Shown piece after piece: positions 150 to 31,668 of a DNA stretch of 37,315 bases; position 1 is the stretch's first letter; each line of letters opens with the position of its first letter. The DNA comes from Candidatus Bathyarchaeia archaeon (GTDB taxonomy: Archaea; Thermoproteota; Bathyarchaeia; Bathyarchaeales; Bathycorpusculaceae), in NCBI GenBank assembly GCA_050012255.1, contig JBEKHN010000019.1:1-37315 (forward strand). Reading direction: 5' to 3'. The translations under genes were made by a program, and so were the position numbers. The notes beneath the pieces are model-generated. The model made no database searches, was not told the origin of the DNA, and worked only from the letters and a program-made list of their open reading frames with translations.

Positions 150-293
150 GATTAATCACAACTTCTACTCAGAAAGGAACAATTACTTAGATATAAGATT
201 TTTTTAGTACGCGCTAAATATTAGTCGTCGTCACCGTCGTAGTCACTGTTTGGGTTTGGGGTAAAGTTTACATCCTACATTAGCGCGCGCTGA

Positions 294-479
294 TCATAGA
301 ACATACTCTTCGCCGTATTCTATTGTCTGCACATTGTTACAGTGGTTTTTGAACAGTTGCTGGTTCTCTGTGTGCACTGGAAAAACTCGTTTGGGTTGGA
401 TGCAGCTGATCAAGTCTACCACCTGGTATTTGTTTAAGTGACCAGAAGCGTGAATCTGATGAAACTGCATTTTGAAGTG
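294..479 (-). pseudogene. C-terminal fragment of RNase J-like beta-CASP/MBL-fold hydrolase
   Basis: HFKMQFHQIHASGH...IQPKRVFPVHTE...EEYVL* carries the HASGH and PVH-x-E motifs; in-frame stop at 480-482 and no N-terminal domain. Confidence 0.75.
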
Positions 480-544
480 TTATATCCGCGCGCGCTCCCT
501 CTCTTTTTTAACCTCCAAGCCTGTTACCCTTTTTGAGCACTACT

Positions 545-565
545 TTGGGAAAGTTTAATTCCCAA
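545..565 (+). promoter_or_regulatory. Inverted repeat overlapping a BRE/TATA-like element
   Basis: TTGGGAA-AGTTTAA-TTCCCAA, perfect 7-bp arms around AAAGTTTAA, about 35 nt upstream of ATG 597. Confidence 0.45.
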
Positions 566-596
566 GAAGATGAATAGAGTGACGCAGGGGAGAAGA

Positions 597-734: not shown

Positions 735-789
735 GAACGGATCTTTTGCCCCAAGAGACTTGTTCGTAAATTATGCAGGGAGGATTCCG

Positions 790-3664
<2,875 letters not shown>

Positions 3665-3694
3665 TCTCGAAAAGCTTGATTGAGGAGTTCTAGA

Positions 3695-4135
3695 TTGAGC
3701 TTGAAAGAGTATGAGCGTAAGAGAGACTTCGACAAAACTGCAGAACCAAAGGGCGACCTACAAGAAGGACATGGCAGTATCTACGTGGTTCAGAAGCACG
3801 CTGCGACGCATCTGCACTACGATCTGCGTTTGGAGATGGACGGCACGCTGAAAAGCTGGGCTATCCCGAAAGAGCCGCCCATTGAGCTCGGTGTCAAAAG
3901 ACTCGCGGTCCAAGTTGAGGATCACCCCATATCGTACGCGACGTTTCAAGGAACCATTCCCAAGGGCGAATATGGCGCAGGAACAGTTGAGATCTGGGAT
4001 AAGGGAACGTACGAGTTGATAGACAGAAAAGAGGACAAACTCATCGTGGAAATCAACGGCGAAAAGCTACGCGGGGCCTATGTCCTCGTCAGACTGAAGA
4101 GCAAGCAGAACTGGCTCTTCTTCAAGAAAAAGTGA
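3695..4135 (+). CDS. Stand-alone DNA ligase D 3'-phosphoesterase (PE) domain protein
   Basis: [59 protein letters not shown]; start could also be 3680. Confidence 0.9.
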
Positions 4136-4396
4136 ACGTAGCTGACGTCTCTTTTAGATGTTCGTTGTCATGCATTGTAGCTTGAGCAAAGTGGTGCTGA
4201 GATATGCAAACAGTTCATCATTTTGTGCACTTTGCTGTTTCCGCTATTTCAAGTGTTTACTCTTTTTCTATCATAGAACAAACTTTCAGAAGCTTATTAT
4301 AGTTAAACGGGGCAGTATTTGATTGTGAACATTGCCAGTAGATCTGGTATTTGTTCGCGATTCAAGTGTTTAAATTGGGTAAAGGAGAAAGGAAGG

Positions 4397-6784
4397 ATGA
4401 AGAAGCGTAGTTCTAAGGCTATAGTTTTGCTTTTCATAGCGATTCTATCCATAAGTGTTGCGTCAGTGTTTCGTACGTATGCACCGTCGATCGAGTGGCA
4501 GGGGTACGTTAAACCATCATTCATAGACTATGCACCCAGCGGGATGCCGGACTTCGATCAAAAGCAGATTGGTTGGGGTCCAGCGCTGGGTGTCTACACT
4601 TGGTGTGGTCCTGTTGCAGTCGCAAACTCGTTGTGGTGGCTCGACTCAGAATACGAATCGTTGGTGTTCGCTAACCCTGTGGCACCACCGACGATAAGTG
4701 ACCACTTTCCCCTAGTAAAGGCCTTTGGCACAGCGTTTGATGATCATGACCAAAGCAACGTTCTTCCGCTTGTGACGACTTTGGCTTACTTGATGGACAC
4801 TGATGGTCTTCAGAGTCACGATGGTCACTGGGGAACACGTTGGCAAGACCTGGAAAGTGGAACCAAGTATTACCTAGCCCAGCAGGGACTAGCCAAATAC
4901 TTTGAGGTTCACAACCGAACTTTCCCAGACTTTGGTTGGTTGAGCAACGAGATCCTGAATTGTCAGGACGTTGAACTATTCCTCGAGTTCTACCAATGGA
5001 ATGGAGCAAGTTGGTACCCGGTCACCAGCATTCCAAGTCTTGAGTCTGGTCACTTTGTGACTTGTGCGGGCGTGAACGTCACAAAAAGCCAAGTGCTTAT
5101 AAGTGACCCGTGGCAGGACGCGTATGAAGCCGGAACCGCTCCTGGACGCTCGCCCGTTGCGCACCCGGCTGGCCACAACGCTACGGTCCACAACGATGCA
5201 CAGTACGTTTCACAAGATGCCTACAACATGACAGTGCGGATCTTTACGCCACCCATAACCATGCCGCCACCAGATGCTTATCCAAATACGGTATACGAGT
5301 TGGAAGGCTATCTGCAGACCATGGGTATTTTCGACAACAGTTATCACACATTCGTCAGAGCAGCTGTAGCGACATCGCCTGTTGCTCAGTGGCCCGGGTA
5401 CACCAAGCCTGCATTTCCTGACTATGCACCTAGCGGCATGCCAGATTTTGACGAACAGCAAGACGCGTGGGGCAAGATGGGTACATACACCTGGTGTGTT
5501 CCTGTGGCTGTTGCGGACTCGTTGTGGTGGCTCGACTCAGAATTCGAATCACTCATGTTTGCCAACCCTGTGGCGCCACCGACAATAAGTGATCACTTCA
5601 ACTTGGTAAACTCGTCAAACCCCTCGAATTGGGACGATCATGATCCAAACAACGTTATGTCTCTTGTTCCGACTTTGGCATTTCTGATGGACACTGATGG
5701 TCTTGCGTCTGGGGACGGGCACTCAGGAACGAGGTGGACCGACATTCAGACGGGAATCCAAAAGTATCTAGTCCAACAAGGTGTGTCAAACATGTTTGAG
5801 GTTCACAACCAATCATTCCCAGAATTTGGATGGATAGACAAAGAAATCGAAAAGTGCCAGGACGTTGAGCTTTGCATTGAATTCTGGCAATGGAATGGAA
5901 CAGCGTGGACCAACACAACAGTCACAGAACCGTTTTTCCAATTCGGCCACTGTGTGGCGTGTGCAGGGGTGAACATCACAACAAGCCAGGTGCTTGTGTG
6001 CGACCCGGCACAAGATGCATACGAGGCTGGAACGGTTCCGGGACGCGAACCAATACCGCACGCGTACCCACATAACTCTACGGTTCATAATGATGCGCAG
6101 TACGTGTCTCAGGATGCTTACACAGTATCGTTGTTCAATTTCTCTAGCCTGCCTCTGCCTATGTCGACGCCACCGCCGGGTTACCCGCAGACCGTGTGGG
6201 AGCTGCAAAATTACCTCGGGCCGAGTTTTCACGCGTTCATAAAAGGTGCTATCGCAGTTTCGCCTGCATTGAACATAGTTCCAGTCAATGTCGAGAGTGA
6301 TAAAGACAAGTGCCTCCCAATGCCAACGGTTGGCAAGGGATTTCTAACGGACATAAACGCCACAGTCGTCAATAACGGATCAAGTGCAGAGAGCTTCACA
6401 GTCACCGTGTACGCAAACTCAACTGCCTTGGGAACCACGACAGTGAACAACTTGGCTCCAGGCGCAAACGTTACGGTTACCGTTGCGACTTGGAACACGA
6501 CCACCTGGGCTTACGGCCACTACTTCCTATCTGTAACAACCAACGCGTCTTATTCGACCTTTACAAGCGATCTTGCGGTGTGGGTGGTCATTCCTGGCGA
6601 CATCAACGGCGACGGCACAGTGGACATCTACGACGCCATACTGCTGTCTGGCGCCTTCAACTCCAGTCCAGGCAGTACAAAGTGGAACCCCAACGCAGAC
6701 ATAAACTGCGACGCCGTCGTTGACATCTACGACGCCATCCTGCTATCAGGTCACTTCAACAAGAGCCAAGTGTACGACCCATAG
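4397..6784 (+). CDS. Secreted protein with two tandem C39/papain-like domains, CARDB-like domain and C-terminal dockerin
   Basis: Signal peptide after MKKRSSK; duplicated units with DQ..WCxPVA, GHxV and DP; two EF-hand-like repeats GDINGDGTVDIYDAILL / ADINCDAVVDIYDAILL. Confidence 0.75.
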   Translation: MKKRSSKAIVLLFIAILSISVASVFRTYAPSIEWQGYVKPSFIDYAPSGMPDFDQKQIGWGPALGVYTWCGPVAVANSLWWLDSEYESLVFANPVAPPTISDHFPLVKAFGTAFDDHDQSNVLPLVTTLAYLMDTDGLQSHDGHWGTRWQDLESGTKYYLAQQGLAKYFEVHNRTFPDFGWLSNEILNCQDVELFLEFYQWNGASWYPVTSIPSLESGHFVTCAGVNVTKSQVLISDPWQDAYEAGTAPGRSPVAHPAGHNATVHNDAQYVSQDAYNMTVRIFTPPITMPPPDAYPNTVYELEGYLQTMGIFDNSYHTFVRAAVATSPVAQWPGYTKPAFPDYAPSGMPDFDEQQDAWGKMGTYTWCVPVAVADSLWWLDSEFESLMFANPVAPPTISDHFNLVNSSNPSNWDDHDPNNVMSLVPTLAFLMDTDGLASGDGHSGTRWTDIQTGIQKYLVQQGVSNMFEVHNQSFPEFGWIDKEIEKCQDVELCIEFWQWNGTAWTNTTVTEPFFQFGHCVACAGVNITTSQVLVCDPAQDAYEAGTVPGREPIPHAYPHNSTVHNDAQYVSQDAYTVSLFNFSSLPLPMSTPPPGYPQTVWELQNYLGPSFHAFIKGAIAVSPALNIVPVNVESDKDKCLPMPTVGKGFLTDINATVVNNGSSAESFTVTVYANSTALGTTTVNNLAPGANVTVTVATWNTTTWAYGHYFLSVTTNASYSTFTSDLAVWVVIPGDINGDGTVDIYDAILLSGAFNSSPGSTKWNPNADINCDAVVDIYDAILLSGHFNKSQVYDP
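4496..6266 (+). repeat. Intragenic tandem duplication, two units of about 890 bp (4496-5389, 5390-6266)
   Basis: Near-identical blocks such as TCGTTGTGGTGGCTCGACTCAGAAT, CACCGAC(G/A)ATAAGTGA and TGATGGACACTGATGGTCTT in both units. Confidence 0.9.
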
Positions 6785-17272: not shown

Positions 17273-17301
17273 CCTGTCTCCGTCCAAGATTTCTTCCGTT
17301 A

Positions 17302-17576: not shown

Positions 17577-17603
17577 ACCCATCTTTTGTTGGAGAGGATT
17601 GGA

Positions 17604-18896: not shown

Positions 18897-19492
18897 GTTT
18901 CAACGAGATTAAACAAACCCTAAAAAGGGTTGATTTGCTCACGGAAACCCAAAGGGAAAACGAGGAGCTGAAGAAGGAACTTGCGAAGAGCCGTAGAGCG
19001 ATGGAGGAGTTAAGAGAAGACTTCAACAAGAGCTGTATGGCTGACATGGAGAAGTGGAAAGGTGAGGTGGTGGCGGCTAAAGAAGGTGAGGAAGAAGCCC
19101 TCACCAGGCTGGGGCTATTCAGGATTAGATGCGCGGCGGGCTTAGAACCCTATGACCTCTCCTTCAACGATGTCGAACCAGACCTCTTGACGAAGATTGT
19201 TTCTCTGAACCAAGAACTGCTGAACAGCGGAACCCTTCAGAATCCCGTCGGACGGGAAATCCAGTTGGCCTTAAACTACCTAAAGAAGAAGCTCCCCCCA
19301 GCGGATTGGAATCTGACCGCCCTCAAGGTGGGCAGCCACGTCCTGGAAAAGTTTGCGTGCCTTGCGGCGGATAAGTGTCTGACGTGTGGAGGGATCGGCT
19401 CGATAGCAACGGTATCCAAGGTACAGTGTCCACGATGCGGGGGGTCTGGAAGGCGAGAAATCGGAATGGGAAGGAAGGTTGATGAGGCATAA
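18893..19492 (+). CDS. Hypothetical protein with C-terminal DnaJ-type Zn-finger motifs
   Basis: CLTCGGIG...CPRCGGSG; GTGA overlap with the upstream gene. Confidence 0.7.
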   Translation: MSFNEIKQTLKRVDLLTETQRENEELKKELAKSRRAMEELREDFNKSCMADMEKWKGEVVAAKEGEEEALTRLGLFRIRCAAGLEPYDLSFNDVEPDLLTKIVSLNQELLNSGTLQNPVGREIQLALNYLKKKLPPADWNLTALKVGSHVLEKFACLAADKCLTCGGIGSIATVSKVQCPRCGGSGRREIGMGRKVDEA

Positions 19493-19962
19493 TAAGAGCA
19501 AGCCTCATCACAGAAAAATCCACAAAACAAAATAGCAAAAGAAGCGAGAGAGAGCGCGCACTTGATTCCAATGCATAACTCGTTCAAAGCTGAGACATAG
19601 GTAAGAACCCTAAACTTTTTGCGGCTAGATTTTTATGCTCTTTCTGACTACATCGAGCCTGGCATTTTCAGCGGGATGTCAGCACCTCAACTAGCGTTAA
19701 AACGTGAAAACTCAGCAACGGTAAAAACGCTAAAACCAGGTCAATGCTGTCACCAAACATAATCACTGCGCGTGCTGAATAGTCACGGTTGCCACATGCC
19801 ATATGACAAGCTCGAACTGCTGCTTCAACCCCCTTCTTTCTATTTGGCATGAGGCGTCATCGTGGTTACCCTCACTATGCTGCCTCACCCATGTTCTTAG
19901 CGCATGATTTCACAGTCCCCTTAGAGCCCCTGTTTTGCAACAGAGCTTTCAAGAGACTCAGG

Positions 19963-20722
19963 CTAACCGTGAAACTTCGCAAATTCCTTGGACTTCTCTA
20001 AAATCTCTGGAATGGTTAGCCTCGCCAAGTCTTCAGTATCGCCTATGAAACTGCATACTAGGCCGGTTCTAGCGTTAAGCGTGTTTGGAACAGTAACCAG
20101 CCTCATGGGATCGACTGAAACTGTGAAGTGGACTCTGTCAAAAACGTGAGTCTGCTTCTGCAACAGCTTAGTCAGTTTGAACCGGCTGGCATGGTGACAC
20201 CAAATCGGATCTCGCTCCCTATACCTAACCCAGTCTCTATAGTCAAAGTCCAAAACGTGAACGTGAAAGCCCATTCTTCCGCTAAAAACGACAGCGAGCC
20301 GCGAGTAATACTTCCTTATGATTTCGCATAGCTGCAAAGTCAACGTTTTAGCCATGCCCAAACATTCAACGCAGACACTCCATTCTGGATCAAGCTGGTG
20401 TTCATGCTTCCACAGCATCATGTAGCTATCAACGTCGACGACATAGCGCCGTTTAGAGGAACGCAGTACCTAGCCTTGTACTTCTTTCCAACACGTTCAG
20501 GGAAGAGCCAGTTTAAAACGCTGAAGTAGACGTGTTGAGGCTTGAGTTTCTAGCAGTAGAAGCGAGGTCCTTCTCGCTTAGCCTGTTCTCGAATTTGTTG
20601 AGCTTGACGAATCTGCCTTCGCATAGCTTAACCCTGAAATGCTTTCTGCTCAGGTTCCAAAGACTAGGCACTCGGAGGGGAACGTCTAGGTAGAACCTTT
20701 CGATCTGCCCCTGTGAAAGCAA
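19963..20722 (-). pseudogene. Archaeo-eukaryotic primase (PriS-like), frameshifted
   Basis: Reconstructed motifs YVVDVD, VFSGRMGFHVH, VDPMRLVTVPNTLNARTGL; frameshifts near 20565 and 20448 and in-frame TAG at 20550-20552, judged against the second copy and motif continuity. Confidence 0.8.
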
Positions 20723-20845
20723 GTTTCGTCAAGCCCAACCCATCGCTTGCGTCCGGGCAAATAAAAGGCAAGTGCTGAAACGATTGGCTTGGGAGCTGGA
20801 GAGACTCAAGTTAAAGTGAGCACGCATCTAATTGTTCTTCGAAGT

Positions 20846-20863
20846 TAGGACATTTTTGTCCTA
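20846..20863. promoter_or_regulatory. Perfect inverted repeat, possible operator
   Basis: TAGGACA-TTTT-TGTCCTA upstream of the primase remnant. Confidence 0.35.
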
Positions 20864-21181
20864 GGGTAACTCGAATCCGAGCAAATGGAGATTTCTCTCA
20901 CAAATCCCCTTTTTTCTCTTTACCACACTCGCTTGCTACCTATTTTTCCGCAAAATTCTACGTCACACTCTAATTTGGTAACACTGATTTAAAATTGCGA
21001 ATTTTCCCTAGCGCGCAAAGGCAGCGCGCGCTTGTCAGGGCGACGTTCAAACTCTCGACAATGAGAGAACGAATTGTCTTAGTCGGTAGAGGAAAAGGTC
21101 AAGAGGTCACTTCGAGGATGACTTCGTCGTAGCCTAGCCTTGCTGAAACTCGGAAAGGCCTTAAAAGAAGAGTTAGACGCG

Positions 21182-21292
21182 CGCGAATATTTGATTCCGA
21201 TGTTAGAGAAGATGGACATTAAGTGCGAAATTCCTTTGAAGAATCTCGGCATTGGCAGGCAACTAGCTTGGTACAAAAAGCATTATTGCTGA
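21182..21292 (+). pseudogene. C-terminal gene fragment, DUF6884-like
   Basis: REYLIPMLEKMDIKCEIPLKNLGIGRQLAWYKKHYC*; family recognised from memory of the PLxxLGIGxQLAWY ending. Confidence 0.5.
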
Positions 21293-21390
21293 GCGCGTGC
21301 GCGTGTTTAGCCTAATCTTAGGGCTCCTGCAGCTCCTTCCCCGTAAAACATATCTTTTGGTTAAACCATACATGACGTGAAGAAATAGTA

Positions 21391-23073
21391 TTGTTAAAGA
21401 GAGCAGTTTCTGGAATAATTCTGACATTGCTGTTAACGGGCATGTTAACGTTGGCATTTAACATTCAACCAGTTAAAGCAAGTGGAACGATTTACATTAG
21501 GGCTGACGGCTCAGTGGACCCGCCAGACGCACCAATCACAACCTTAGACAACGTGACATACACGCTAACAGAAAATATTAATATTACAAGTTCTGACGAT
21601 GGAATTATTCTAGAAAGAGACAACATAATAATTGATGGAAATGGATACACAGTTCAAGGGTCAGTAACATTTTTTTCCAGAGGAATAATCCTGACGGGAA
21701 GAAGCAACGTAACAATCAAGAACACGAGAATTACGACATTCCATTATGGCATTACGACATTAGGTTATGAGCCCGAGATCGATTCGTGTTCTTATGGCAA
21801 CATTAGCGGAAACAACGTAGCAAACAACGTGGACGGCATCTATCTCAGTAGTTCTTCTGGCTACAGCATTAGCGGAAACAACATAACAGCAAACAACATG
21901 TGGGGCATCAGGCTCGCTTTTTCTTCTGGCAACAGTATCAGCGGAAACAACATGACAGCAAACGGCTGGGCTGGCATCTATCTCGAGTCTTGTTCTGGCA
22001 ACAGCATTAGCGGAAACAACATAGCAAACAACGGGCATGGCGTCCAGTTATACGGGTCTTCAAGCAATACTATGGCTGGAAATAACATAACAAACAACGG
22101 GTATGGCATCATGCTCGATTGGGCTTCTCCTGGCAACAAGCTTTATCATAACAACTTCAACAACACTAACCAAGTCTGTTCTTCAGACTCAATGAATGTT
22201 TGGGATGACGACTATCCAAGCGGTGGTAACTACTGGAGCGACTACGTTGGCGTTGACCTTTATCATGGACTCTATCAGAATGAGACCGGTAGCGATGGTA
22301 TAGGAGATATTCCCTGCATTATTGATGAAAATAATCAGGACAACTATCCTTTGATGGAGCCTTGGAGTCCTGTTGAAGTTGTTAACGCTACTATCGATAT
22401 TGACCCTGGTACTCTGAACTTGAGGAGCAGGGGTAAGTGGATTACTTGCTACGTTGAGCTTCCTAAGGGCTACAACGTAAGTGATATTAACGTTACCTCG
22501 GTTATGCTGAATGACACGGTTCCTGTCTATCCCAAGGCGCACGCTATAGGAGACTATGATGAAGACGGCATCCCAGACTTGATGGTTAAATTTGACAGAG
22601 CTGAAGTCATAGACTACATAATGGCTAATGTTAACATGACTGAACTGTTTGAAGAAAAGCTCATGACAGTTACATTAACCATAACTGGTAAACTCAATGA
22701 TGGAACACCACTCCAAGGGAATACAAAAATCAGAATAATAGCGCGCGCGGGGCTTCCAAGAATCAATAGCAAGATATCTTTTAACCTATCGCCAAACCCC
22801 GCATTAACCGGGCAAACAATCACTTTAACCGGCAATCTCAAGAACCAGCTTGGCAATGCGATAGGCAATGCTCCCATTGAAGTGTATTACAGCATAGACA
22901 ACGGTCTCAATTGGATATACGCAGGAGCAATACGAACGAACTCTACTGGCTGGTTCAGTGCCAAAGGAAAGCTCACAATCGTTGGCATCTTTCCAATCGC
23001 AGTTGTCTACCGAGGCAACTTCAGATACAGCCAAAGCTACCAAATAGAGAAGCTAACGGTCAAATTGCCGTAG
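21391..23073 (+). CDS. Secreted parallel beta-helix (NosD/CASH-like) protein with appended Ig-like domain
   Basis: Signal peptide, GTIYIRADGSVDP, repeated SGNSISGNNITAN units, GGNYWSDY...DGIGD...DNYPL, PDLMVKFDR. Confidence 0.85.
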   Translation: MLKRAVSGIILTLLLTGMLTLAFNIQPVKASGTIYIRADGSVDPPDAPITTLDNVTYTLTENINITSSDDGIILERDNIIIDGNGYTVQGSVTFFSRGIILTGRSNVTIKNTRITTFHYGITTLGYEPEIDSCSYGNISGNNVANNVDGIYLSSSSGYSISGNNITANNMWGIRLAFSSGNSISGNNMTANGWAGIYLESCSGNSISGNNIANNGHGVQLYGSSSNTMAGNNITNNGYGIMLDWASPGNKLYHNNFNNTNQVCSSDSMNVWDDDYPSGGNYWSDYVGVDLYHGLYQNETGSDGIGDIPCIIDENNQDNYPLMEPWSPVEVVNATIDIDPGTLNLRSRGKWITCYVELPKGYNVSDINVTSVMLNDTVPVYPKAHAIGDYDEDGIPDLMVKFDRAEVIDYIMANVNMTELFEEKLMTVTLTITGKLNDGTPLQGNTKIRIIARAGLPRINSKISFNLSPNPALTGQTITLTGNLKNQLGNAIGNAPIEVYYSIDNGLNWIYAGAIRTNSTGWFSAKGKLTIVGIFPIAVVYRGNFRYSQSYQIEKLTVKLP

Positions 23074-23317
23074 CATGCACTAAGAAATCAGTCTATCTTT
23101 CTGGTTCGCTTTGCCGACGAGCCAGTTTAGTCCGATAACTGACGCGATAGAAAGGAGACCCACAAGCGCGCGCATTCTACTCCCTCGAATCAAACGCAAA
23201 ATGTGCAAACAACATAACACAGCGCGCGCGCTTAGGACGCACGTCGATTAAATAGTCAAATGCAACACGTTTGACGGTAGTTAGCGAAACGCCGTGATGA
23301 ATGTAAGGGGCGTTCAT

Positions 23318-23779
23318 ATGAAAGTTAAGTGGAAGATACGGCGTCATATTAAGCCAGGGGATATAGGGTATCTCACTTATCTTCATGGAATCTTGTATGC
23401 AAAAGAATATGGCTACGACCAAACATTCGAAGCGTATGTTGCAGGTGGGCTTGCAGAATTTGTTCAATCGTTCAGACCCGCCAAAGATCAAATTTGGCTG
23501 GCAGAGACAAACGGTCGAATTATTGGTTCCATCGTCATTGTCGGGCACTCAAAAGTAGATGCTCAACTTCGCTGGTTCCTCGTTCATCCTGACTATCGAG
23601 GGCTTGGTATTGGCAAAGAGCTCCTGAAGGACGCGCTTCAGTTCTGTAAGGAGTGCAAGTACAAAACCATATTCCTCTGGACAACAAACGAACTAATAGA
23701 GGCTGGTCATCTCTACACATGCTTCGGCTTCAGTAAAACCGAGAGGAAAACGCACAAAATTAGCGCGCGCGCTACATAG
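23318..23779 (+). CDS. GNAT family N-acetyltransferase, C-terminus apparently truncated
   Basis: AQLRWFLVHPDYRGLGIGKELL, FLWT, AGHLY..FGF; ends abruptly ...THKISARAT in a (GC)5 tract. Confidence 0.85.
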   Translation: MKVKWKIRRHIKPGDIGYLTYLHGILYAKEYGYDQTFEAYVAGGLAEFVQSFRPAKDQIWLAETNGRIIGSIVIVGHSKVDAQLRWFLVHPDYRGLGIGKELLKDALQFCKECKYKTIFLWTTNELIEAGHLYTCFGFSKTERKTHKISARAT

Positions 23780-23803
23780 ACAACAATTTGAGGAAGACGG
23801 AGT

Positions 23804-24163
23804 TTGACGAAGAAAAAAAGCAAGACCCGTCGATGGATGGAAAAAAACAGCGTGGGCCTTCTGGAGGTAGTTGTTACAATTATCATCGGATTGCTGACAA
23901 TCAATTATTCAAGAACAGTTGTAATAATAAACCAGACATACGTGCCACCTGCCGCGCAGGCTAGCTGGCATACGGTGGAAAGTTGGCAATTGGGAGCCTC
24001 AGCAACGGCAACCACACAAACACTTACATTTGATTGGGCGGGATTCTTGGGAGACGTTTCTTGGTGTGTTACATTAGGTGTTGCAGGTCTAATCGGGCTA
24101 TACCGCTGGAAAAACTATCATTGGAAGACGGTAAATTGGCGCGCGCTAATGAATGCTCACTAA
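23804..24163 (+). CDS. Small membrane protein, possibly chimeric or truncated
   Basis: Two hydrophobic segments; the 3' end runs through the (GC)4 tract at 24139. Confidence 0.5.
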   Translation: MTKKKSKTRRWMEKNSVGLLEVVVTIIIGLLTINYSRTVVIINQTYVPPAAQASWHTVESWQLGASATATTQTLTFDWAGFLGDVSWCVTLGVAGLIGLYRWKNYHWKTVNWRALMNAH

Positions 24164-24660
24164 TGTTTTCTTCGGAGCCAGAATATCCATTGAGCCAATA
24201 TGAACCCGAATGTTGCGATTGTCGAAAAGATAATGACCAAGCCTGTGAAGGGATTTATGTATGCTTCGAATTCGACAGTAGGACCAACTAACCTACCCCC
24301 GATCAAGACATTGATTATCACAAGTAAGAATATGCTCAAGTACAAACCAACAGCCAAAAATGTTCTTGCACCCAACAAGATCGCTTCTCTTTTCGATTTT
24401 AGAAACCAAAAATAGCAAAGAATTGCACCTAGTAACGAGAATGAAGAATATATGCCAAACTCTGAGATAATGTAGCCATAACTAAGAAACGGAATCCCGA
24501 AGAAGTTCGTCATGCCCGCATGGTTAACTATTGTCAATACATCGTTTGGCATAGTTAGAACAATAGAATACATGACAAATACAAAACCGAGAATGACAAC
24601 AGCGATCTCGATTTCAACTCTATAGGATTCGCTTATGGTGGTTTCTTTCTTTGTTGGCAT
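24160..24660 (-). CDS. Hypothetical 4-TM membrane protein
   Basis: Four hydrophobic segments; GAGGA before ATG; AT-rich. Confidence 0.7.
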   Translation of the reverse strand: MPTKKETTISESYRVEIEIAVVILGFVFVMYSIVLTMPNDVLTIVNHAGMTNFFGIPFLSYGYIISEFGIYSSFSLLGAILCYFWFLKSKREAILLGARTFLAVGLYLSIFLLVIINVLIGGRLVGPTVEFEAYINPFTGLVIIFSTIATFGFILAQWIFWLRRKH

Positions 24661-24862
24661 AAATCCTCATAGAAGATAAATCTTGAAACCAACTATTAAC
24701 ACATTTTCTTTTCGCCACATAGCGTGCTTTGAAAACTTTAAGAAAAAAGAGTTTATGGCAAGGCGTACAGCTTCTTCGGTCTGCCTTCTTTCGGCTCGAG
24801 GCTTTTTCCCCTGTCATCCCCGATCTTCCGAACGGTTCCCCATGCCACTCCATATACTCACT

Positions 24863-24994
24863 CACACACTGTGCGAGTGTGTGGTCACTATGTATAGGTA
24901 GGTAGGTAGGGTGTGTGAGAGATTGTGTGCGTAGTAGAGAGTAGTAGAGAGCGAGTGTGTGTGCTTAGGGGTAAAGTTTTACCCAACCAACCAA
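24863..24994. repeat. Low-complexity microrepeat block
   Basis: CACACACT/AGTGTGTG hairpin, (TAGG)4, (GTAGTAGAGA)2, GGGTAAA-GT-TTTACCC, (CCAA)3. Confidence 0.7.
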
Positions 24995-25037
24995 CACATG
25001 ACAAAACTTTTTCCAAGAGGCAAACCAAAAGTAATCA

Positions 25038-25277
25038 GCACCTCGCTGATCGCGAGGTGCCTGCAAAGCAAGAGGCAGGGTGCCACCCTTCGTCACCTAC
25101 GCCCCTATAACGAAGCAGGTCACCTAATACGGGGCTTTGGTGACTACGGGTGGCTGGTAAGAGGCTACGTGAACGTGCTGTGAGAAAAGAGGCTACCTAT
25201 TACGCACGTTCGCTCTCACAAAGAAAGAAAGCAATTCAAGACGCTATATTCCAAGAGGCTACTCTTGACGCTATATT
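25038..25277. ncRNA. Candidate structured non-coding RNA or ssDNA element
   Basis: 9-bp hairpin, three-way junction with complementary loops, 10-bp stem, three AAGAGGCTAC copies; strand not determined. Confidence 0.5.
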
Positions 25278-25384
25278 ATAGTGCTAAAGAAAGAAAGTAG
25301 ACAGCAGGGCAAAAGAGGGGTAGAAAAGCGTAAAACGGGAAAAACTGTTAGAAGTTAAATCTATAAGACAAAACAACAACATGT

Positions 25385-26080
25385 TTGAACATGAATCATC
25401 GCAAAGCTCTTTCACTCTCAATATCGGTAGTGCTTTTGGTAATCTTTATAGTGCTGGTCTATTTCTATCGGTCATCTTTTGAATTCCTTTCGATTTTTGT
25501 AAGAGATGCATTGTGGGCAAGCGTTCTTGTCACGGTTGTGCTGGTAATCATAAACACTTTCTATGCAATGCAAACAAGACAGACAATTAAAGAGATGGAA
25601 AAAGCAAGGAAAGCCGATTTCCTTCCACACGTCAGAGCCGAGTTGAGTTTTCTAGGTCCAGTTTTTTTGATTCTGAAGGCAACTAACTTCGGCAAAGGAC
25701 CAGCTACTGACATTAGAACCGAAATCACTTTTCTACCTTCAAATGAAAAAAGGGTCTGGCAACAGGCAATTATGTCACCTAATGAATTCATTCGCATTCT
25801 ACTGCCAGATGGAAATCTGGCAAAGGTATTGGAGAGGTCTGCGGAAATCACTGCGAAGGGAGAATACAAGGATGTTTTCGGTCAAACCTTCAAAATAGAT
25901 GAAAGAATGGACGTAAAGGCATTCATTGATGAAGCTACACAACTTCGACCCATTCTAGAGAGGGACCTTGCCAGACTTGTTGAAGATATAAAAGACAAGT
26001 TAGACGGTATAGAGCGAGAATTACATGATATACGGTTACAATTGGAAACCAGAAGAATAGCAGAAACGGAAGAGCTGTGA
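25385..26080 (+). CDS. Hypothetical protein with two N-terminal TM helices and C-terminal coiled coil
   Basis: 231-aa ORF; TM-TM-YAMQTRQT..EM...NFGKGPA pattern. Confidence 0.75.
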   Translation: MNMNHRKALSLSISVVLLVIFIVLVYFYRSSFEFLSIFVRDALWASVLVTVVLVIINTFYAMQTRQTIKEMEKARKADFLPHVRAELSFLGPVFLILKATNFGKGPATDIRTEITFLPSNEKRVWQQAIMSPNEFIRILLPDGNLAKVLERSAEITAKGEYKDVFGQTFKIDERMDVKAFIDEATQLRPILERDLARLVEDIKDKLDGIERELHDIRLQLETRRIAETEEL

Positions 26081-26086
26081 CACCGA

Positions 26087-26333
26087 ATGGACAAAGAGGA
26101 TAGAGAGTTTCAGCTCGAACTAACAAGACTTCAATTAATATTTGAATGGTTTTTTGCGGTACTTGTTGGTATGTTCAATCTTTTATGGGCTACTGTCTTT
26201 CTACCGAGATAACCCTGCTATGTTCTTGGGTACAAACGCGATGATAGTTCTGATTATGGCTCTTCTTGTCGTGACTTATAGATTAATGGACTATAAATTC
26301 AAACAAATAAGAAAGAGCTACATCGAGAGCTAG
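26087..26333 (+). pseudogene. Small membrane protein gene, probably frameshifted
   Basis: MDKEDREFQLELTRLQLIFEWFFAVLVGMF in one frame continues as SIFYGLL...KFKQIRKSYIES* in another; shift near 26175. Confidence 0.45.
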
Positions 26334-26393
26334 CATTTTCCGTTTCTAGCGCGTGCGCTAAGTGTTTTAAGAACGGAAAGTCTATTCTAACAC

Positions 26394-26843
26394 ATGAAAA
26401 AAGAATTTGAATGGACAAATCACGAAGCTGTCAAGAATGCAGTTAAAGAGTGGTTGAAAAACCGAAGATATTTTGAAATCCTTCCTGCAAAAACATGGCT
26501 CAATCCTTTGAACATTGATGTCCTCACAAGAAAGACTTGTCCAGAAGAACTGTACCTCTTTGAATTATATGAAATAAAGGTGAAAAGAGATAACCTTCAG
26601 GTAGCACCTTATCAACTAGAAACCTGTAGAATACGACTTGAAGACCAAGGTGCTACTAGATGCTATGTTGTTGTGCCACACTGGCTTTTAGACCAACTAG
26701 ACAATTGCGGTGAATATCCTTTTTTCATTGCAGCAATGAAACGATTTGGATATGGCATAATAACCGTTAGTCCTGCGCTTATTCCGACCGAATTTGTGAA
26801 ACCTCTTACTTTCAAGAGAGTCAAAGAAGCTACATGGAAATAG
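26394..26843 (+). CDS. PD-(D/E)XK nuclease-like protein
   Basis: HEAVK..VKEWL...IDVL...YEIK...YQL pattern, followed by YVVVP and GIITV strands. Confidence 0.6.
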   Translation: MKKEFEWTNHEAVKNAVKEWLKNRRYFEILPAKTWLNPLNIDVLTRKTCPEELYLFELYEIKVKRDNLQVAPYQLETCRIRLEDQGATRCYVVVPHWLLDQLDNCGEYPFFIAAMKRFGYGIITVSPALIPTEFVKPLTFKRVKEATWK

Positions 26844-27008
26844 TCTAAACCATTTCTTGAGATTCTTTTCCTCTTCTATTCAGAATTCAGAAAGGGAGCC
26901 TTTCTAAGGCACGGAATAACGTTTAATAGCCTATTAGCCTTTATCCTTCTAGGAGAAGGAGAGAATGAAGACTAAAACGGTAAAGGTGGCTCTAGATAGC
27001 GCGCGCGC

Positions 27009-27281
27009 ATTTAGGGGGACACAATACCGAGCCTTATACTTCTTGCCGACCCTTTCTGGAAAGAGCCAGTTTAGAACAGAGAAGTAAACGTGACGAGGCC
27101 TGAGTTTCCGACAGTAAAACTTCAAGTCCCTGGCTGATAGGCGATTTTTGAACCTGTTTAGTTTGACGAATCGGCCTTCGCCAAGCGAAACCCGGAAATG
27201 CTTCCGGCTTAGGTTCCAGAGGCTGGGCACTTGGAGGGGATAGTCTACATAGAACCTTTGGATTTCGCTAGGTGAGAGCAA
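27009..27281 (-). pseudogene. N-terminal fragment of a second PriS-like primase copy
   Basis: MLSPSEIQRFY...YCVPLN closely matches 20722-20452; similarity stops at the (GC)5 tract 26999-27008, before the catalytic DxD. Confidence 0.85.
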
Positions 27282-27321
27282 GGTTCGTCATCCAAATAGA
27301 AGACCGCGCGCGCTTTCGATT

Positions 27322-27333
27322 CTCACCGGTGAG
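27322..27333. repeat. 12-bp palindrome CTCACCGGTGAG (also 31189-31200; 10/12 variant 16805-16816)
   Basis: Direct sequence match; each copy lies near a (GC)4 tract. Confidence 0.75.
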
Positions 27334-27818
27334 TAAAAGTGATTTTGGAGTTTTGTATGGTAAGGTTCAAAGGTTAGCAAGCGCGCATGCGTGTTCCTAA
27401 AATGGTCAAAAATGGTTTTAATTCGGTTTTGCCCGTTTCTCCTGTGTTCGAGGAAGACAAAATCCCCAAAGAAATCAAGAACAGACACGAAGCCCAAAGC
27501 CGTCCCCAGATGATGAAGTGCGAAGGCGCGCGCGCCATAGATTATTGAAGTTATCTTTTCAATATGTTTTTCCAGATGTTTCAAGCAGTTTTACCATTGA
27601 CAGGAATTCTGATGCTTCAATTGGAACAATTTTATAACCTTTGTTTATGGCTTGAGTAATGAGATTAGTAGCGCGAGCTATGTTCCACAAATCTTAAATA
27701 AAGTTCTCGCACAAAGAGACACTTATCCTATGTTTTGGAATGTCGTTTAGCGAAAAATGAACTTCTTCTCGAACATAGGAGAAAAATGAATAGCGTAGAG
27801 AAGGGAGAAAAAGGAAAA

Positions 27819-29990
27819 ATGAGAGAAAGCTCAAAACTGGGAATTCTGCTTTTAGCTTTGCTGGTGATGAGCCTTTTTGCAGGCGCCTATTTTGTTTCAG
27901 GTACATCCGATTCTTCAATGATAGCCGATAAAGCGAGGTCAAATCATCCTTCGCCGAATGAACAAGTGACAGTCTCAGACCCAACAGCCGAAAAGCCCCT
28001 GACGAATATTATTGTCGATTCCGATGCACCGCAATTTGCCTCAGACAATGACGTTGCGGGCTCATCGGGTTCTGGCTGGAAACCCGACGTAAACATAGTG
28101 CCTGGAAGCATCTACACGGCGAGAGATGAGGTTAATCCCTCAATTGCCACGTACATTGATTCGTCAACAGGAGCGGTTACTCTGTGGGCTGCGATGCAGA
28201 GTTGGGATTCATACTATTCCCACTGGTTCCTATGGGTCTTTGCTTCTAACGATAGAGGAGCCACGTGGTGGCAACGTGGCGCAGCCGCTTGGGTTTCGAA
28301 CCGAAGCATCATCAACCCTTCAATAGCAGTCAGTCCTTACAACGGAACAGTCTTCGTCGCCGTTCAAAACACCGCGTTCGGAGGATCTACAAACGACATA
28401 CAAATCCATGTTATCTCTCCAGTAGCTCTTGGCCCATGGGCATCGTATAATATTGACGCTGATGCTGACGATGACCTCTCTCCGCAACTGGTTTCGGAAT
28501 ACGGCTGGGGAACTGGCAACTGGTTGCACGTTTCTTATGAGAGGTACGTGACTTATGACGACCGCGACCTATGCTATGGAAACTCGGGAGACTGGGGCAA
28601 AACATGGTCAACGAAAGTGTTACAAGGTGCGGTAGGCACCCCTGGAGCAGCCGATGTATTCACTCAAAGTGACATCGCATTTGTGCAAGACAACGTATAC
28701 GTGGCCTACAGGCACTCAATCGACTACAATACACAAGGAATCATAGAAGTTATGTACTCCACTAATTTTGGCGGCACATTTAAAATACCCGTTAAAGTCA
28801 GTCCCACAAAAAACACTAATGCTCGGTGGCCAACCGTAATAGGCTCTCACAAAGGACCTTGGAACGAGCCAACCACAATGTGGATTGCTTATCAAAATGC
28901 CAGTGGCAGCCCCACCTACGGCGACGTTTTTGCTTGTTGGAGTAAGGACTTCGGTGATACATGGTCGTCTCCAGTAACAATAGCTGGCACTTCTTATGAT
29001 GAAGGGAAACCTCAGCTGAGCGTGGACGGAATGGGCACAGAAAACGGCAACGTACCTGGGTACATTCATCTTGTGTACTGGACAAGCGAAAACACCGCCT
29101 CCAGAACTAACGGTGTATACTACACGCAAATCGCTTACTTCGAGCCGACCTACGCTCCTGCCCCGCAGGTTTATCTCTTCGAAGAAGGCTGGTCAACCCC
29201 GAAAGGACAAATCATTGACAACAACGGGTACGCGAGTGCCACTTACAACACTCCGACAATCACCACTTTCACACGTACAGTTGCAGGAGAAACCCTTTGG
29301 GTGCCAGGCGTCGCATGGACAGACTTACGAAACCCCAACTACGATGTATACTTCACCACACTCGACACGATGTTCCGCGTTACCGTCTATCCTAGCACTC
29401 AGACTGTGGTCGCAGGCGGGTCACTATCGTACTACATCACGGTCACGCTAAACTCAGGCGCAACGGCAACAGCCACGCTGGACATCGTTGGACCAAACAC
29501 GTACCACCTGAGCAGCGCAAACGTGTGGGGCCACACCTTCAATCCGCCAACAGTCACACCAACTGCCACATCGCTCCTAACCTTCAATACCGCCAACTTC
29601 CTAGGTCCAGGAAGCTATTCCATCCGTGCATCCGCGGTCATAGGAGGCTACCGCCGCACCGCCGCTGTAACCTTTGTGGTGACGGCATCCCCGACCCTTA
29701 CACTGAACATCAATCCGTCCACGGTCGCAAGAGGCTCGCCACTAGCCATAAACGGGCAACTCACTCCTGGCATGGCCACGACAGTATACCTTTACTACAG
29801 ATATCCCCACGCAACTGGTTCATGGGCACTAGCCACTACCATACCAACCAACGCGGCTGGAGCCTACAGCGTAACCGCAACGGTTCCAATGAGCCTAACG
29901 CCCGGAATCTATGACCTAGTAGCGGTCTGGTTCAACCCAGCCAACGGCGCCTACACAGCTAGTCCCATAAGAGTACTAACAATAACATAG
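27819..29990 (+). CDS. Secreted BNR/Asp-box (sialidase-like propeller) protein with C-terminal Ig-like domains
   Basis: Signal peptide; SNDRGATW, SGDWGKTW, STNFGGTF, SKDFGDTW; T/V-rich beta-sandwich tail. Confidence 0.8.
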   Translation: MRESSKLGILLLALLVMSLFAGAYFVSGTSDSSMIADKARSNHPSPNEQVTVSDPTAEKPLTNIIVDSDAPQFASDNDVAGSSGSGWKPDVNIVPGSIYTARDEVNPSIATYIDSSTGAVTLWAAMQSWDSYYSHWFLWVFASNDRGATWWQRGAAAWVSNRSIINPSIAVSPYNGTVFVAVQNTAFGGSTNDIQIHVISPVALGPWASYNIDADADDDLSPQLVSEYGWGTGNWLHVSYERYVTYDDRDLCYGNSGDWGKTWSTKVLQGAVGTPGAADVFTQSDIAFVQDNVYVAYRHSIDYNTQGIIEVMYSTNFGGTFKIPVKVSPTKNTNARWPTVIGSHKGPWNEPTTMWIAYQNASGSPTYGDVFACWSKDFGDTWSSPVTIAGTSYDEGKPQLSVDGMGTENGNVPGYIHLVYWTSENTASRTNGVYYTQIAYFEPTYAPAPQVYLFEEGWSTPKGQIIDNNGYASATYNTPTITTFTRTVAGETLWVPGVAWTDLRNPNYDVYFTTLDTMFRVTVYPSTQTVVAGGSLSYYITVTLNSGATATATLDIVGPNTYHLSSANVWGHTFNPPTVTPTATSLLTFNTANFLGPGSYSIRASAVIGGYRRTAAVTFVVTASPTLTLNINPSTVARGSPLAINGQLTPGMATTVYLYYRYPHATGSWALATTIPTNAAGAYSVTATVPMSLTPGIYDLVAVWFNPANGAYTASPIRVLTIT

Positions 29991-30185
29991 CAAAAAGGTG
30001 CGCAACCCTAAGCCATCCCCCCATTTTTTCTCTGTATTGCCTAGAAAAGACCACTTCTCACTCGCAAACGTTGTACGTCGTCGTATGCCAGCTAAACTTT
30101 AACGAATTGGGGTTTTGGGTTTGGGGGTAAAGTTTTATTGCTGAAATGAGGTAGGGTAGACCACCTAGCAACGAGGTCATAGACA

Positions 30186-31079
30186 ATGGATTTGGAGAAG
30201 GGTTTCTTGGGCGGTTTCGCGCGCGCGCGCGCGAAGGAGAAGCTGAACTTCACACGCTTCTACAGGATTTTCCCCGGGGGCATACCGGAGGTGTGTAAAT
30301 TCGCAGAAGTTCCTGTTCCGATCGAGCGGATCAAAAGGATAGAGAAAGCGATGAAGGCCTCAAGGGATGAGGAGGTCAAGGGAGTTCTGACCAGGGCGTT
30401 TGGATGGGAGAAGAGACGTGACAAAGCTAAGGCGCTGCTTGATGCGGAGAAGAGGGAGAAGGAAGCCAAGTTAGAAGCGCTGAGGATGGAAGCTCAGCTG
30501 GATCCAAGGAAAATTCCTGCATACCTTGAAGAGAAGAGCTCGCCCTTGCTGAGCGATCTGCGTGAAGCGTGCGCCATTGAGAAGGACAGCCTCCAGGATG
30601 CATGCCTTGAAGCTGTCGAATATTGGGATTCGAATGCTCGCTCAGAAACCAAGACTTTTGAGGATTATATTGAGTACTGCTTATCAAATTGGGCATGGTG
30701 GGTGAGGCTATGTAATGCAACAAAAAAGTACAGTGGAACGACCTTCGGCTGCCGTTGTCCTGAATGTAACGGCAAATATGAATATGCTACGTATTATGAC
30801 TCCGGCGCTGAATTCTTCAAATGTCCCAACTGTGGAAAAACTGTATGCTATCCATGCCCAATCTGCATGGAAGCGTGGCGTTCCGAGAAGCGTTTAGAAT
30901 ATGATCCGAAGAGAAATACACTCCACTGTTCCTTGTGTGGATCTCACTTTGACGTGACCCCTCCAGCCCTGAATAGGCAGAGCACTGCTTACACAGAAAA
31001 AGTCAAGCAGCAGAGAAGAAATGCGGAAAAGCAAGACCAAGAGATGATGAAAAGGTTGTGGCGTAGCCTGATGCATTAA
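30186..31079 (+). CDS. Hypothetical protein with four CxxC motifs; N-terminus probably chimeric
   Basis: CPEC, CPNC, CPIC, CSLC; (CG)8 tract encodes ARARA near the start. Confidence 0.7.
   Translation: MDLEKGFLGGFARARAKEKLNFTRFYRIFPGGIPEVCKFAEVPVPIERIKRIEKAMKASRDEEVKGVLTRAFGWEKRRDKAKALLDAEKREKEAKLEALRMEAQLDPRKIPAYLEEKSSPLLSDLREACAIEKDSLQDACLEAVEYWDSNARSETKTFEDYIEYCLSNWAWWVRLCNATKKYSGTTFGCRCPECNGKYEYATYYDSGAEFFKCPNCGKTVCYPCPICMEAWRSEKRLEYDPKRNTLHCSLCGSHFDVTPPALNRQSTAYTEKVKQQRRNAEKQDQEMMKRLWRSLMH
30216..30235. repeat. Perfect 20-bp palindrome TT(CG)8AA, longest member of the (GC)n family
   Basis: Direct reading; other tracts of at least 8 nt at 283, 488, 15643, 16765, 21024, 21178, 22741, 23166, 23222, 23763, 24139, 26999, 27306, 27526, 31206, 31312, 31449. 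Confidence 0.95.
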
Positions 31080-31668
31080 TCAGATTTCGCAGGTTCTTTG
31101 CCAACAAATGCACGCACCGCTGCGACTAGCGCGCGATTCTTTCATTTCTACAGTTATGTTGCCCATTAATATGAGATCGATCGAAATACTCACCGGTGAG
31201 TCAATGCGCGCGCTACTGCAAAGAAGCAAGAAGGAGCTGCGGTCCTCAAAACTTCCCACAAATCCGAAAACAAGAATTATAACCATTTTACACCAATTAT
31301 TTAACCCGCCTGCGCGCGCTTTCCAGTTTTTCCCGCGCCTTGACTCTTTCTGCTGGACCGCCAAATCATTTTACGCTAAAGTAAACTAGAATTATGGTGG
31401 GGATTAGGAAGTAACTTTGTATCGTCGACTATCGTTCGCATATCTGGAGCGCGCGCGCTCAGAAGCGCGTTTCTCGCTGACTGAGAAATTCGAAGCAATT
31501 CTGTAGAACGCGCACATCTAGATTTGTTGCATTTGATACAGATTAGTTGCAGGAATCACGCCTATCCCACATCATATTGCCGATAGAAGAGGATTCCATA
31601 AAGCATTTAAGCAGAATATGTTCAGATGTGAATATGATTGATTACCATTGACAAAGATATTTAGGTCG

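Follow-up and report, generated by a model that had tools for sequence, protein, structure and literature searches.

Alternating-GC palindromes as putative scars of DNA joining in the strain-specific regions of a Bathyarchaeia genome

Introduction

The window analysed here is a whole contig (C19) of 37,315 bp from a Bathyarchaeia genome (G000) of 2.35 Mb, in 38 contigs and with 48% G+C. Scattered along it are palindromic runs of alternating G and C, which we call tracts when they are at least 8 nt long, unless stated otherwise; shorter runs of 6–7 nt are listed separately. A first-pass annotation, made from the letters of the window alone, had proposed that these palindromes mark the junctions of a mosaic of genes and gene fragments. 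We compared the window and its genome with a sister genome of the same genus (G001), which is a single closed contig of 2,346,764 bp and was used entire, and followed the tracts through the class Bathyarchaeia. The comparison suggests that the tracts are scars left where DNA has been joined, although the way in which they are made can be proposed only tentatively.

Results

Genes and GC tracts at the locus

The gene content of the window is archaeal, and includes transcription factor B (TFB), pyruvate:ferredoxin oxidoreductase and an OB-fold protein resembling single-stranded DNA-binding proteins. It holds 18 tracts and 6 runs of 6–7 nt, which corresponds to 4.8 tracts per 10 kb versus a genome mean of 1.67 per 10 kb. 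All 24 were found where the first-pass annotation had placed them, except that two start one base earlier (at 487, not 488, and at 27305, not 27306), and the one-mismatch variants that it had listed at 21293, 26349 and 27671 are present as well. It had also pointed to tract-free stretches, and indeed no run of at least 6 nt lies between 496 and 15642 or after 31458, so that there is none in the subtilase open reading frame (ORF) at the right end. TA flanks, which had been assigned to about half of the tracts, are somewhat rarer: 11 of the 24 have TA on one or both sides.

The left part of the window, up to position 16656, is syntenic with G001. Near its beginning, two tracts, TA-GCGCGCGC-TG (283..290) and CGCGCGCGC (487..495), form the left and right borders of a 247-bp stretch (272-518) that differs between the two genomes. 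Homology to G001 stops at 271 and resumes at 519, and G001 carries at the same place a different insert of ~125 nt, likewise between two tracts, GTGCGCGC and AGCGCGCGCC. Further along, a 2.6-kb segment (4136..6763, plus strand) with an ORF for a CARDB/dockerin protein (4319-6784) is replaced in G001 by TTGCGTCCAG-GCGCGCGC-TA. The third tract of the shared part, AA-GCGCGCGC-CG (15643..15650), lies in the spacer between the TFB and cupin genes; here G001 reads GCGCGCAC, which corresponds to decay by one transition. A degenerate copy of a miniature inverted-repeat transposable element (MITE) occupies 16235..16395, is 73% identical to the MITE at C4:116795-116961, and has the 6-nt run at 16389-16394 as its terminus.

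The shared part ends in a tRNA gene (16589..16645, plus strand) that was recognized by Rfam over model positions 9-63 only and that ARAGORN does not find. It looks like a tRNA-Gln(UUG) spanning ~16558-16663, with an odd insert in the region of the D-arm and an encoded CCA. The last 66 nt of the gene recur in several genomes, and the tRNA forms the border of an island (16657..31500) for which no syntenic match exists in G001, G004, G007 or G009, and which contains 15 of the 18 tracts. Synteny with G001 ends at 16656, the 3' end of the tRNA, as it does for tRNA-linked islands, in which strain-specific DNA starts from the tRNA 3' end. The direct repeat of the tRNA end (16591-16656) that the far border of an integrative island would carry was absent from a self-search of the window, and ORF and Pfam scans of the island yielded no integrase family.

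At the island start, ~110 nt beyond the tRNA, lies the tract TA-GCGCGCGC-TT (16765..16772). It is followed by a 7-nt run, TA-GCGCGCG-TG (17533..17539), and a 6-nt run whose length is within the range of chance (19554..19559), both between ORFs. The minus strand at 19963..20740 then carries an apparently disrupted gene with likeness to archaeo-eukaryotic primases (AEP; PriS-like), recognized by a weak hit to PF01896 (E 0.0012). It belongs to a small AEP (PriS-like) primase-like family that resides in strain-specific DNA and also includes a fragment at 27010..27290 and a paralog on another contig (G000:C32:4589-5285). The fragment (minus strand, 281 bp, ~93 codons) represents the N-terminal part, is 76% identical to positions 20452-20731, and has a tract on each side. 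Its homology to the paralog begins directly behind TA-(GC)5-AT (26999..27008), and CGCGCGCGC (27305..27313) is located 14 nt upstream of its start codon, which supports the earlier proposal of a primase gene cut at tracts.

The spacer upstream of a NosD-like gene holds two runs 7 nt apart (GCGCGC and GCGCGCGC, 21011..21031) and the tract CGCGCGCG (21178..21185). The gene itself (21391..23073, plus strand) encodes a NosD/beta-helix surface protein, and a tract at 22741-22749 is read in frame (...RII-ARA-GLP...), between the middle domain and a C-terminal Ig-like domain, at a possible point of fusion; paralogs of the latter domain point neither to a fusion nor away from one. Its tandem beta-helix repeats (21780-22140) match many paralogs in G000 and in sister genomes. 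Beyond it, AA-GCGCGCGC-AT (23166..23173) lies in a spacer and CA-(GC)5-TT (23222..23231) upstream of a gene for a GNAT acetyltransferase (23294..23779, plus strand), whose last 5 codons correspond to the tract TA-(GC)5-TA (23763-23772). The C-terminus of this protein is ~12–20 residues shorter than those of solved relatives, with 10 residues past the last aligned residue versus 22–30, and a contig of sequencing run X3 matches the gene at ~90% up to 23761, beside the tract, and then continues for 89 additional letters. These observations agree with the proposal that the GNAT gene was cut at its tract; no paralog of it was found in G000 or G001. The next tract, TG-GCGCGCGC-TA (24139..24146), is placed where two small convergent ORFs end.

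To the right of the primase-like fragment, a truncated MITE (27380..27535) has an intact left inverted repeat, A-GCGCGC-ATGCGTGTTCCTAAAATGG..., while its right end is replaced by (GC)5 at 27526-27535; the 6-nt run at 27381 is the GCGCGC tip of this element. The longest tract, (CG)8, occupies 30218..30233. The 34 nt that precede it (30185-30218) are 97% identical to C1:3409-3442, and the likeness stops at the tract. A 7-nt run, TA-GCGCGCG-AT (31129..31135), in a non-coding stretch, is followed by the tracts AT-GCGCGCGC-TA (31206..31213), CT-GCGCGCGC-TT (31312..31319) and, as the last one before the subtilase ORF, GA-(GC)5-TC (31449..31458). The subtilase ORF (31648-37314) is open-ended, encodes at least 1889 aa with many Ig-like domains, and is devoid of tracts; the C-terminal domain encoded by the NosD-like ORF is similar to these Ig-like repeats. 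For two further genes that had been described as cut, RNase J-like and DUF6884-like, Pfam gave no such families among the ORFs scanned.

Contigs built independently from sequencing run X1 cross 19855-27348 and 27477-33000 with no difference from the window, and break only at the tRNA and at the MITE; run X1 is probably the source sample, and its contigs are thus not independent data. Of the island, no more than small and diverged parts are present in runs X2 and X3. Short 'joints' with sides of 20–27 letters were left aside, and most of them are explained by the NosD-like repeats, which attract short diverged contigs from other metagenomes. Since tracts are found in the closed, single-contig genome G001 and in ten metagenome-assembled genomes (MAGs), and since X1 contigs cross the junctions, the tracts are not an artefact of assembly.

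The tracts represent one discrete motif

Genome-wide, G000 carries 393 tracts, versus ~42 in order-3 Markov simulations. The octamer GCGCGCGC is the commonest 8-mer of the genome, with 868 occurrences on both strands versus 50–62 expected from models of order 0–3, and ranks first both by count and by the ratio of observed to expected occurrences (13.9), as is typical of the most over-represented octamer palindrome in genomes of the HIP1 type. Dinucleotide repeats other than GC were not enriched in G000 when compared to simulations. Run lengths decay geometrically up to 7 nt and then form a separate hump, with 201 runs of 8 nt, 123 of 9 nt, 63 of 10 nt and 6 longer than 10 nt; among the 8-nt runs, GCGCGCGC outnumbers CGCGCGCG by 176 to 25. 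Bias in the flanks is confined to positions -1 (A, 62%) and +1 (T, 56%), all other outside positions being unbiased.

The length hump at 8–10 nt and the bias at -1 and +1 alone indicate that the motif is one discrete (A)GCGCGCGC(T) of 8–10 nt, and neither a tail of free length, as had been envisaged in the first-pass annotation, nor a piece of a longer repeat. A longer repeat unit surrounding the tracts is excluded by the absence of bias beyond the two adjacent positions, and general microsatellite slippage by the lack of enrichment of other dinucleotide repeats together with the separate hump.

In both genomes, A is found at -1 with a probability of 0.68–0.72 and T at +1 with a probability of 0.60–0.70, and the joint frequency equals the product of the two. 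Because the A and T flanks are statistically independent, the halves (A)GCGC look as if they had been acquired individually, one per DNA end. One-mismatch variants of the tract are enriched ~2-fold for transitions at every position, and therefore no particular methylated cytosine is indicated; the same observation disposes of a special variant of the tract centre (GCGCACGC), which was seen twice at empty MITE sites. The extended motif AGCGCGCGCT is present in 7–114 copies in each of 10 genomes of the genus, as opposed to 0–1 copies in 20 genomes of other genera of the family and order.

Two other 8-mers, GGTAAAGT and GGGGGAGG, rank among the most over-represented behind the tract. A conserved motif, ~GGGTTTGGGGGTAAAGTTT, is found at 248-270 and 30101-30138 of the window and at multiple sites in all genomes of the genus that were searched, with 94–100% identity; it may be a promoter or another signal.

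Tracts are concentrated in DNA that is not shared with the sister genome

Approximately 60% of each of the two genomes can be aligned to the other, with 92–94% identity in syntenic blocks. Unaligned DNA holds 331 tracts in G000, versus 62 in aligned DNA (3.55 versus 0.44 per 10 kb), and the corresponding numbers in G001 are 393 and 62. Tracts of G000 are thus 8 times denser in DNA that is not shared with G001. A rough ORF map, which covers 84% of the genome, placed 274 of the 393 tracts outside ORFs; the first-pass annotation had emphasized placement inside coding sequence, and this stands for some tracts but not for the majority. When both divisions are combined, unshared non-ORF DNA has 12.3 tracts per 10 kb, unshared ORFs have 1.27, shared non-ORF DNA 2.4 and shared ORFs 0.16, the latter being about the level of chance.

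Within spacers, tract densities are similar irrespective of the orientation of the neighbouring genes (0.66 per kb in divergent, 0.70 in tandem and 0.95 in convergent spacers), and no preferred distance of tracts to gene starts or stops was observed in G000. On these two grounds a role as promoter or terminator was discarded. For 60 tracts in shared DNA, 28 are retained in G001 and the other 32 are mostly 1–3 point changes away. This degree of retention, as well as the enrichment of one-mismatch variants in transitions, shows that tracts, once formed, decay roughly like neutral DNA.

Homology between the genomes ends at tracts

A tract lies within 12 nt of 135 of the 654 places where homology between the two genomes ends (53 in G000, 92 in G001), compared to 15.5 ± 3.7 for the same number of random non-ORF places in one genome. 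Among 377 variable segments of at least 100 nt, 56 have a tract at one end and 3 at both ends, versus expected values of 12.5 and 0.1. The densest accumulation of tracts that was seen, 12 in 13.1 kb, is an insertion relative to G000 (G001:C1:382081-395204), whose joint in G000 lies on C23 and is precise.

We then considered 114 indels between collinear blocks in which one allele measures at most 40 nt and the other at least 100 nt. In 35 of them, the short allele has a GC tract of at least 7 nt exactly at the joint, in the arrangement flank-(GC)n-flank, versus ~4 estimated by chance from the tract densities of the different classes of DNA; ~10 further short alleles have decayed versions of a tract. 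The long alleles of these 35 indels range from 162 bp to 4.1 kb, and in 32 of them neither end has a tract within 40 nt. As fillers, the clearest examples are AGCGCGCGCT (twice), AGCGCACGCT, AGCGCGGCCT, ACGCGCGC and a GCGCGC added to flanking GC. A total of 33 indels lacking a filler show microhomology or direct repeats of 0–29 nt, and were taken for ordinary insertions and deletions.

The coincidence of tracts with homology ends, indel joints and unshared DNA argues that tracts are junction scars, in which a filler appears de novo between arbitrary flanks. The earlier view that tracts mark cuts and joins is thereby borne out: sister-genome homology stops at tracts and intact alleles mostly lack a tract at their ends. 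Its suggestion of a recombination site akin to HIP1 fits less well, since intact alleles are usually devoid of a tract at the break points.

Three cases provide information on which allele is older. At the CARDB/dockerin site, approximately the last 25 nt of the window ORF survive in G001 directly after its GCGCGCGC, which indicates that G001 carries a deletion with a tract scar; three further genomes of the genus have neither the gene nor the tract at this site. What remains in the shared flank is the last 52 codons of a cohesin protein at C23:1859 and, for a UbiA gene at C6:52178, the first 31 codons, the rest being found in the long allele. In all three the shared flank holds part of a gene whose remainder sits in the long allele, and they are hence deletions sealed with a tract. 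An ORF of at least 120 aa spans the junction in 6 of the 35 long alleles, a result to which we give little weight because chance open frames can mimic it, and no Pfam domains were found across the junctions of long alleles.

IS5-like elements and MITEs end in GCGCGC

Both genomes contain mobile elements with the inverted repeat A-GCGCGC-ATGC/TAGC-NTGTTCCTAAAT at both ends, with 96 matches to this repeat in G000 and 67 in G001. A 1.08-kb element bears such terminal inverted repeats, as do members of the IS5 family of insertion sequences (IS), and encodes a transposase with DUF772 (E 7.7e-11) and DDE_Tnp_1 (E 5.2e-15) in two reading frames, the gene being frameshifted in both copies that were read. 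On the basis of these two domains, the element is assigned to the IS5 type by sequence. Each genome also holds some 30–40 MITEs of 160–310 bp; complete copies add up to 65 in G000 and G001 together, measure 134–493 bp and are devoid of ORFs, as expected for MITEs, and the largest subfamily comprises 33 copies of ~202 bp. Several contigs of G000 end ~100–260 nt from an inverted repeat of the family (C8:93-114, C9:88-109, C15:106-127, C16:240-261, C20:107-128 and C25:106-127), and for this reason the full-length element is probably collapsed or missing in this assembly.

All four clean cases pair a MITE of one genome with an 8-nt tract at the same site of the other, with 6+6 GC letters at the occupied site versus 8 at the empty one. 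The difference would fit equally a MITE that inserted into the 8-mer and duplicated 4 bp and one that was excised and left a footprint; target-site duplications of the IS5 group measure 4 bp. No direct repeat was found outside the terminal hexamers of the MITE copies. Copies with variant hexamers are divided, since in some the inner four letters would fit as the duplication and in others, including C12:61124, the outer four. A strict TA target duplication was discarded for the MITEs, as the two flanks of a copy often differ.

Tracts, transposase and Ku in Bathyarchaeia

We scanned 401 Bathyarchaeia genomes for tracts, considering as tract-rich those with at least 20 copies of AGCGCGCGCT, and for Ku, LigD_N and DUF772; these presence counts rest on MAGs, which are incomplete and prone to losing repeats. 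Tract-rich genomes number 21 and belong to at least five families, in a patchy spread, and DUF772 transposase was detected in 7 of them. The tract-rich genome G122, of another family, displays the same length hump and A/T flanks. Copies of AGCGCGCGCT versus matches to the inverted repeat amount to 39 versus 0 in G004, 56 versus 0 in G008 and 82 versus 1 in G009. Taken together, these counts are suggestive of elements with GCGCGC ends that accompany tracts, and of tracts that nevertheless occur without the elements.

G000 carries an operon (G000:C10:11500-15300; L201:2504-6306) for a LigD_Prim-Pol protein (E 7e-84), Ku (E 2e-40) and a fusion of ligase and LigD phosphoesterase, followed by a DUF72 gene. 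Ku is also present in 7 of the 10 other genomes of the genus and in 113 of the 401 genomes, most of which have 0–3 copies of AGCGCGCGCT. The window itself harbours a stand-alone LigD 3'-phosphoesterase gene (3680..4135, plus strand; PF13298, E 2e-40). This family is common in the order, being found in 27 of 31 relatives, and is thus no marker of the tract trait.

Discussion

The reading of the palindromes as junction scars in mosaic, strain-specific DNA, put forward in the first-pass annotation, appears largely correct. For their origin we lean, with a confidence that falls just short of even, towards a form of end joining with a fixed self-complementary filler, which would make the scars in which IS5-like elements land. 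Whenever DNA is deleted, replaced or inserted, the new joint would acquire the fixed 8–10-nt filler (A)GCGC|GCGC(T). Each broken end would receive its own half, (A)GCGC..., by sequence-specific addition or from a ready-made GC oligomer, and the self-complementary halves would let any end pair with any other before sealing. In a deletion, two chromosome ends would be joined in this manner, and a captured fragment would end up between two tracts. The IS5-like elements and MITEs, with their ends GCGCGC+WWGC, would insert into scars with a 4-bp target duplication rather than make them, as suggested by the tract-rich genomes G004, G008 and G009, which have 0–1 element repeats. The idea of GC tails that anneal at joints, already present in the first-pass annotation, agrees with the anatomy of the tracts; the addition step is conjectural, and the link to Ku and LigD that had been expected fails across the class. 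A broader formulation, in which several Bathyarchaeia lineages would possess a Ku-independent end joining that puts (A)GCGC on each end, drives gene loss, fragment capture and island mosaics, and provides IS5-like elements with landing sites, is plausible to us but rather more doubtful than not.

A number of points weigh against end joining with a fixed filler. To our knowledge, no enzyme appends a constant sequence of alternating G and C to DNA termini, and our analysis produced no candidate for such an activity. Pairing of two GCGC tails would give a filler of 4 nt, and the filler is 8 nt long. The terminal (A)GCGCGC of the IS and MITEs matches a half-tract, and a different IS of 1138 bp in G122 ends again in GCGCGC+TAGC; a transposon origin would explain this more simply. 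Ku is found in only 4 of the 21 tract-rich genomes, such that tracts do not co-occur with Ku-dependent non-homologous end joining (NHEJ), and G016 has the whole Ku operon but a single AGCGCGCGCT. Polarity depends on the three gene remnants and on the 6 junction-spanning ORFs, from a test prone to chance, and the evidence is entirely comparative.

The transposon origin deserves to be spelled out. Tracts would be footprints of excised IS5-like elements or MITEs, in which either the last 4–5 nt of each end (AGCGC + GCGCT) or the two copies of a 4-bp GCGC duplication stay joined, and deletions would be accounted for by adjacent deletions made by the transposase, followed by excision. The abundance of the inverted repeat and of MITEs in both genomes, the existence of a 1.08-kb copy with a DUF772/DDE_Tnp_1 transposase, albeit frameshifted, and the exact replacement of the MITE by an 8-nt tract in all four clean cases are what one would expect from such a process. 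So is the inverted repeat at the end of the long allele in 5 of the 35 indels with a tract scar, as judged by reading of the table, and the patchy spread over the class would fit a mobile cause; the IS of G122, with the same GCGCGC+TAGC ends, again has no direct repeat outside them. We nonetheless regard footprints as clearly less probable than end joining, of which they are the main rival. By our reading, the break points of the intact allele are free of elements, tracts and GCGC for approximately 27 of the 35 scars (a tract near one end was noted in 3 of the 35 long alleles). Each of these scars would demand an insertion, an adjacent deletion and an excision within one lineage, yet the alignable sites included no plain new insertion. 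If the hexamer were part of the element, there would be no target duplication, which is unusual for a DDE transposase; if scars were doubled GCGC, one would predict empty AGCGCT sites and no deletion scars at places lacking GCGC. Genomes rich in tracts with 0–1 repeats (G004, G008 and G009), and a DUF772 transposase in 7 of 21, also speak against footprints, if not conclusively, since MAGs lose repeats.

Tracts could alternatively be sites at which a nuclease or recombinase cuts GCGC|GCGC, pieces between tracts moving into other tracts in the manner of cassettes. The stretch 272-518 of the window, where one pair of tracts encloses different inserts in G000 and G001, resembles the outcome of such an exchange, and tracts also flank the GNAT gene, a small ORF (23804-24163) and the primase-like fragment on both sides. 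Variable segments with tracts at both ends exceed expectation, and at some homology ends, for example at C1:251525, both genomes have a tract with unrelated DNA beyond. Such segments nevertheless make up only 3 of 377, and the 32 of 35 long alleles without a tract near either end imply that most events are not excision between existing sites; neither a recombinase nor a nuclease candidate was identified, and the ORF and Pfam scans of the island yielded no integrase. We thus hold a cut site to be quite improbable.

The least likely of the four readings, to which we attach very little probability, is a palindrome like HIP1 that is kept or spread by selection or by repair linked to a methyltransferase or restriction, or else a regulatory or Z-DNA site, the link to junctions being secondary. 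It would account for an octamer palindrome that is the most frequent 8-mer, for a lineage-specific distribution (all 10 genomes of the genus, against 0–1 copies in 20 relatives) and for the mostly intergenic location. Conservation, however, does not go beyond neutral decay, distances to gene starts and ends are not fixed, the three spacer types differ little, and shared ORFs hold tracts at about the level of chance. Moreover, the motif arises as a de novo insertion at joints, and not via point changes of near-matches.

How the tracts relate to known systems can be seen by comparison with four of them. HIP1 (GCGATCGC) of cyanobacteria is likewise an 8-bp palindrome, the most over-represented octamer and specific to lineages. 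HIP1 occurs throughout the chromosome, in conserved and coding regions too, and has been connected with a Dam-like methylase. The palindrome studied here is instead concentrated in strain-specific non-coding DNA (12.3 per 10 kb in unshared non-ORF DNA, versus 0.16, near chance, in shared ORFs) and is newly formed where rearranged DNA is joined. Footprints of cut-and-paste excision are known from eukaryotes, in Tc1/mariner, the P element and hAT. There too a short constant sequence matching the element ends stays behind, and MITE and solo tract alternate here at the same place; the differences are that at most scars the sister genome carries no element and that some tract-rich genomes lack the element family. 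In the end-joining fillers known so far (N and P nucleotides of NHEJ, polymerase-theta joining), the sequence varies or copies nearby DNA. The tracts share with them extra nucleotides at the joint that come from neither flank, and G000 has a Ku/LigD Prim-Pol/ligase-phosphoesterase operon, but the filler is one fixed palindrome and its presence in the class does not follow Ku. As for the IS5 family, the elements described here resemble it in DUF772 and DDE_Tnp_1, in terminal inverted repeats and in the many short derivatives without ORFs; they differ in ends that are or abut GCGCGC, appear tied to one 8-bp palindromic target or footprint, and the expected 4-bp duplication is deduced solely from the count of 6+6 versus 8 letters. 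Among the titles and opening lines of abstracts that we surveyed, there was no archaeal counterpart of HIP1 and no description of DNA rejoining with such tract scars, and titles alone revealed no case of archaeal excision footprints.

If the repair route is true, such a 'universal sticky end' would represent a novel cellular mode of DNA rejoining, from which an enzyme for attaching a defined sequence to DNA ends might be obtained. If instead the tracts were footprints, they would represent, as far as titles and abstract openings of the literature indicate, the first large set of archaeal excision footprints, and cut-and-paste turnover on a scale that is not visible from element copies alone. 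An 'iterated palindrome' can, in addition, arise as a side effect of rearrangement and need not be a functional site, which bears on the origin of HIP-like motifs. Whatever the mechanism, each scar keeps a legible and dated trace of one deletion or capture, and scars could be used to measure gene turnover in these abundant, uncultured archaea of sediment, peat and soil.

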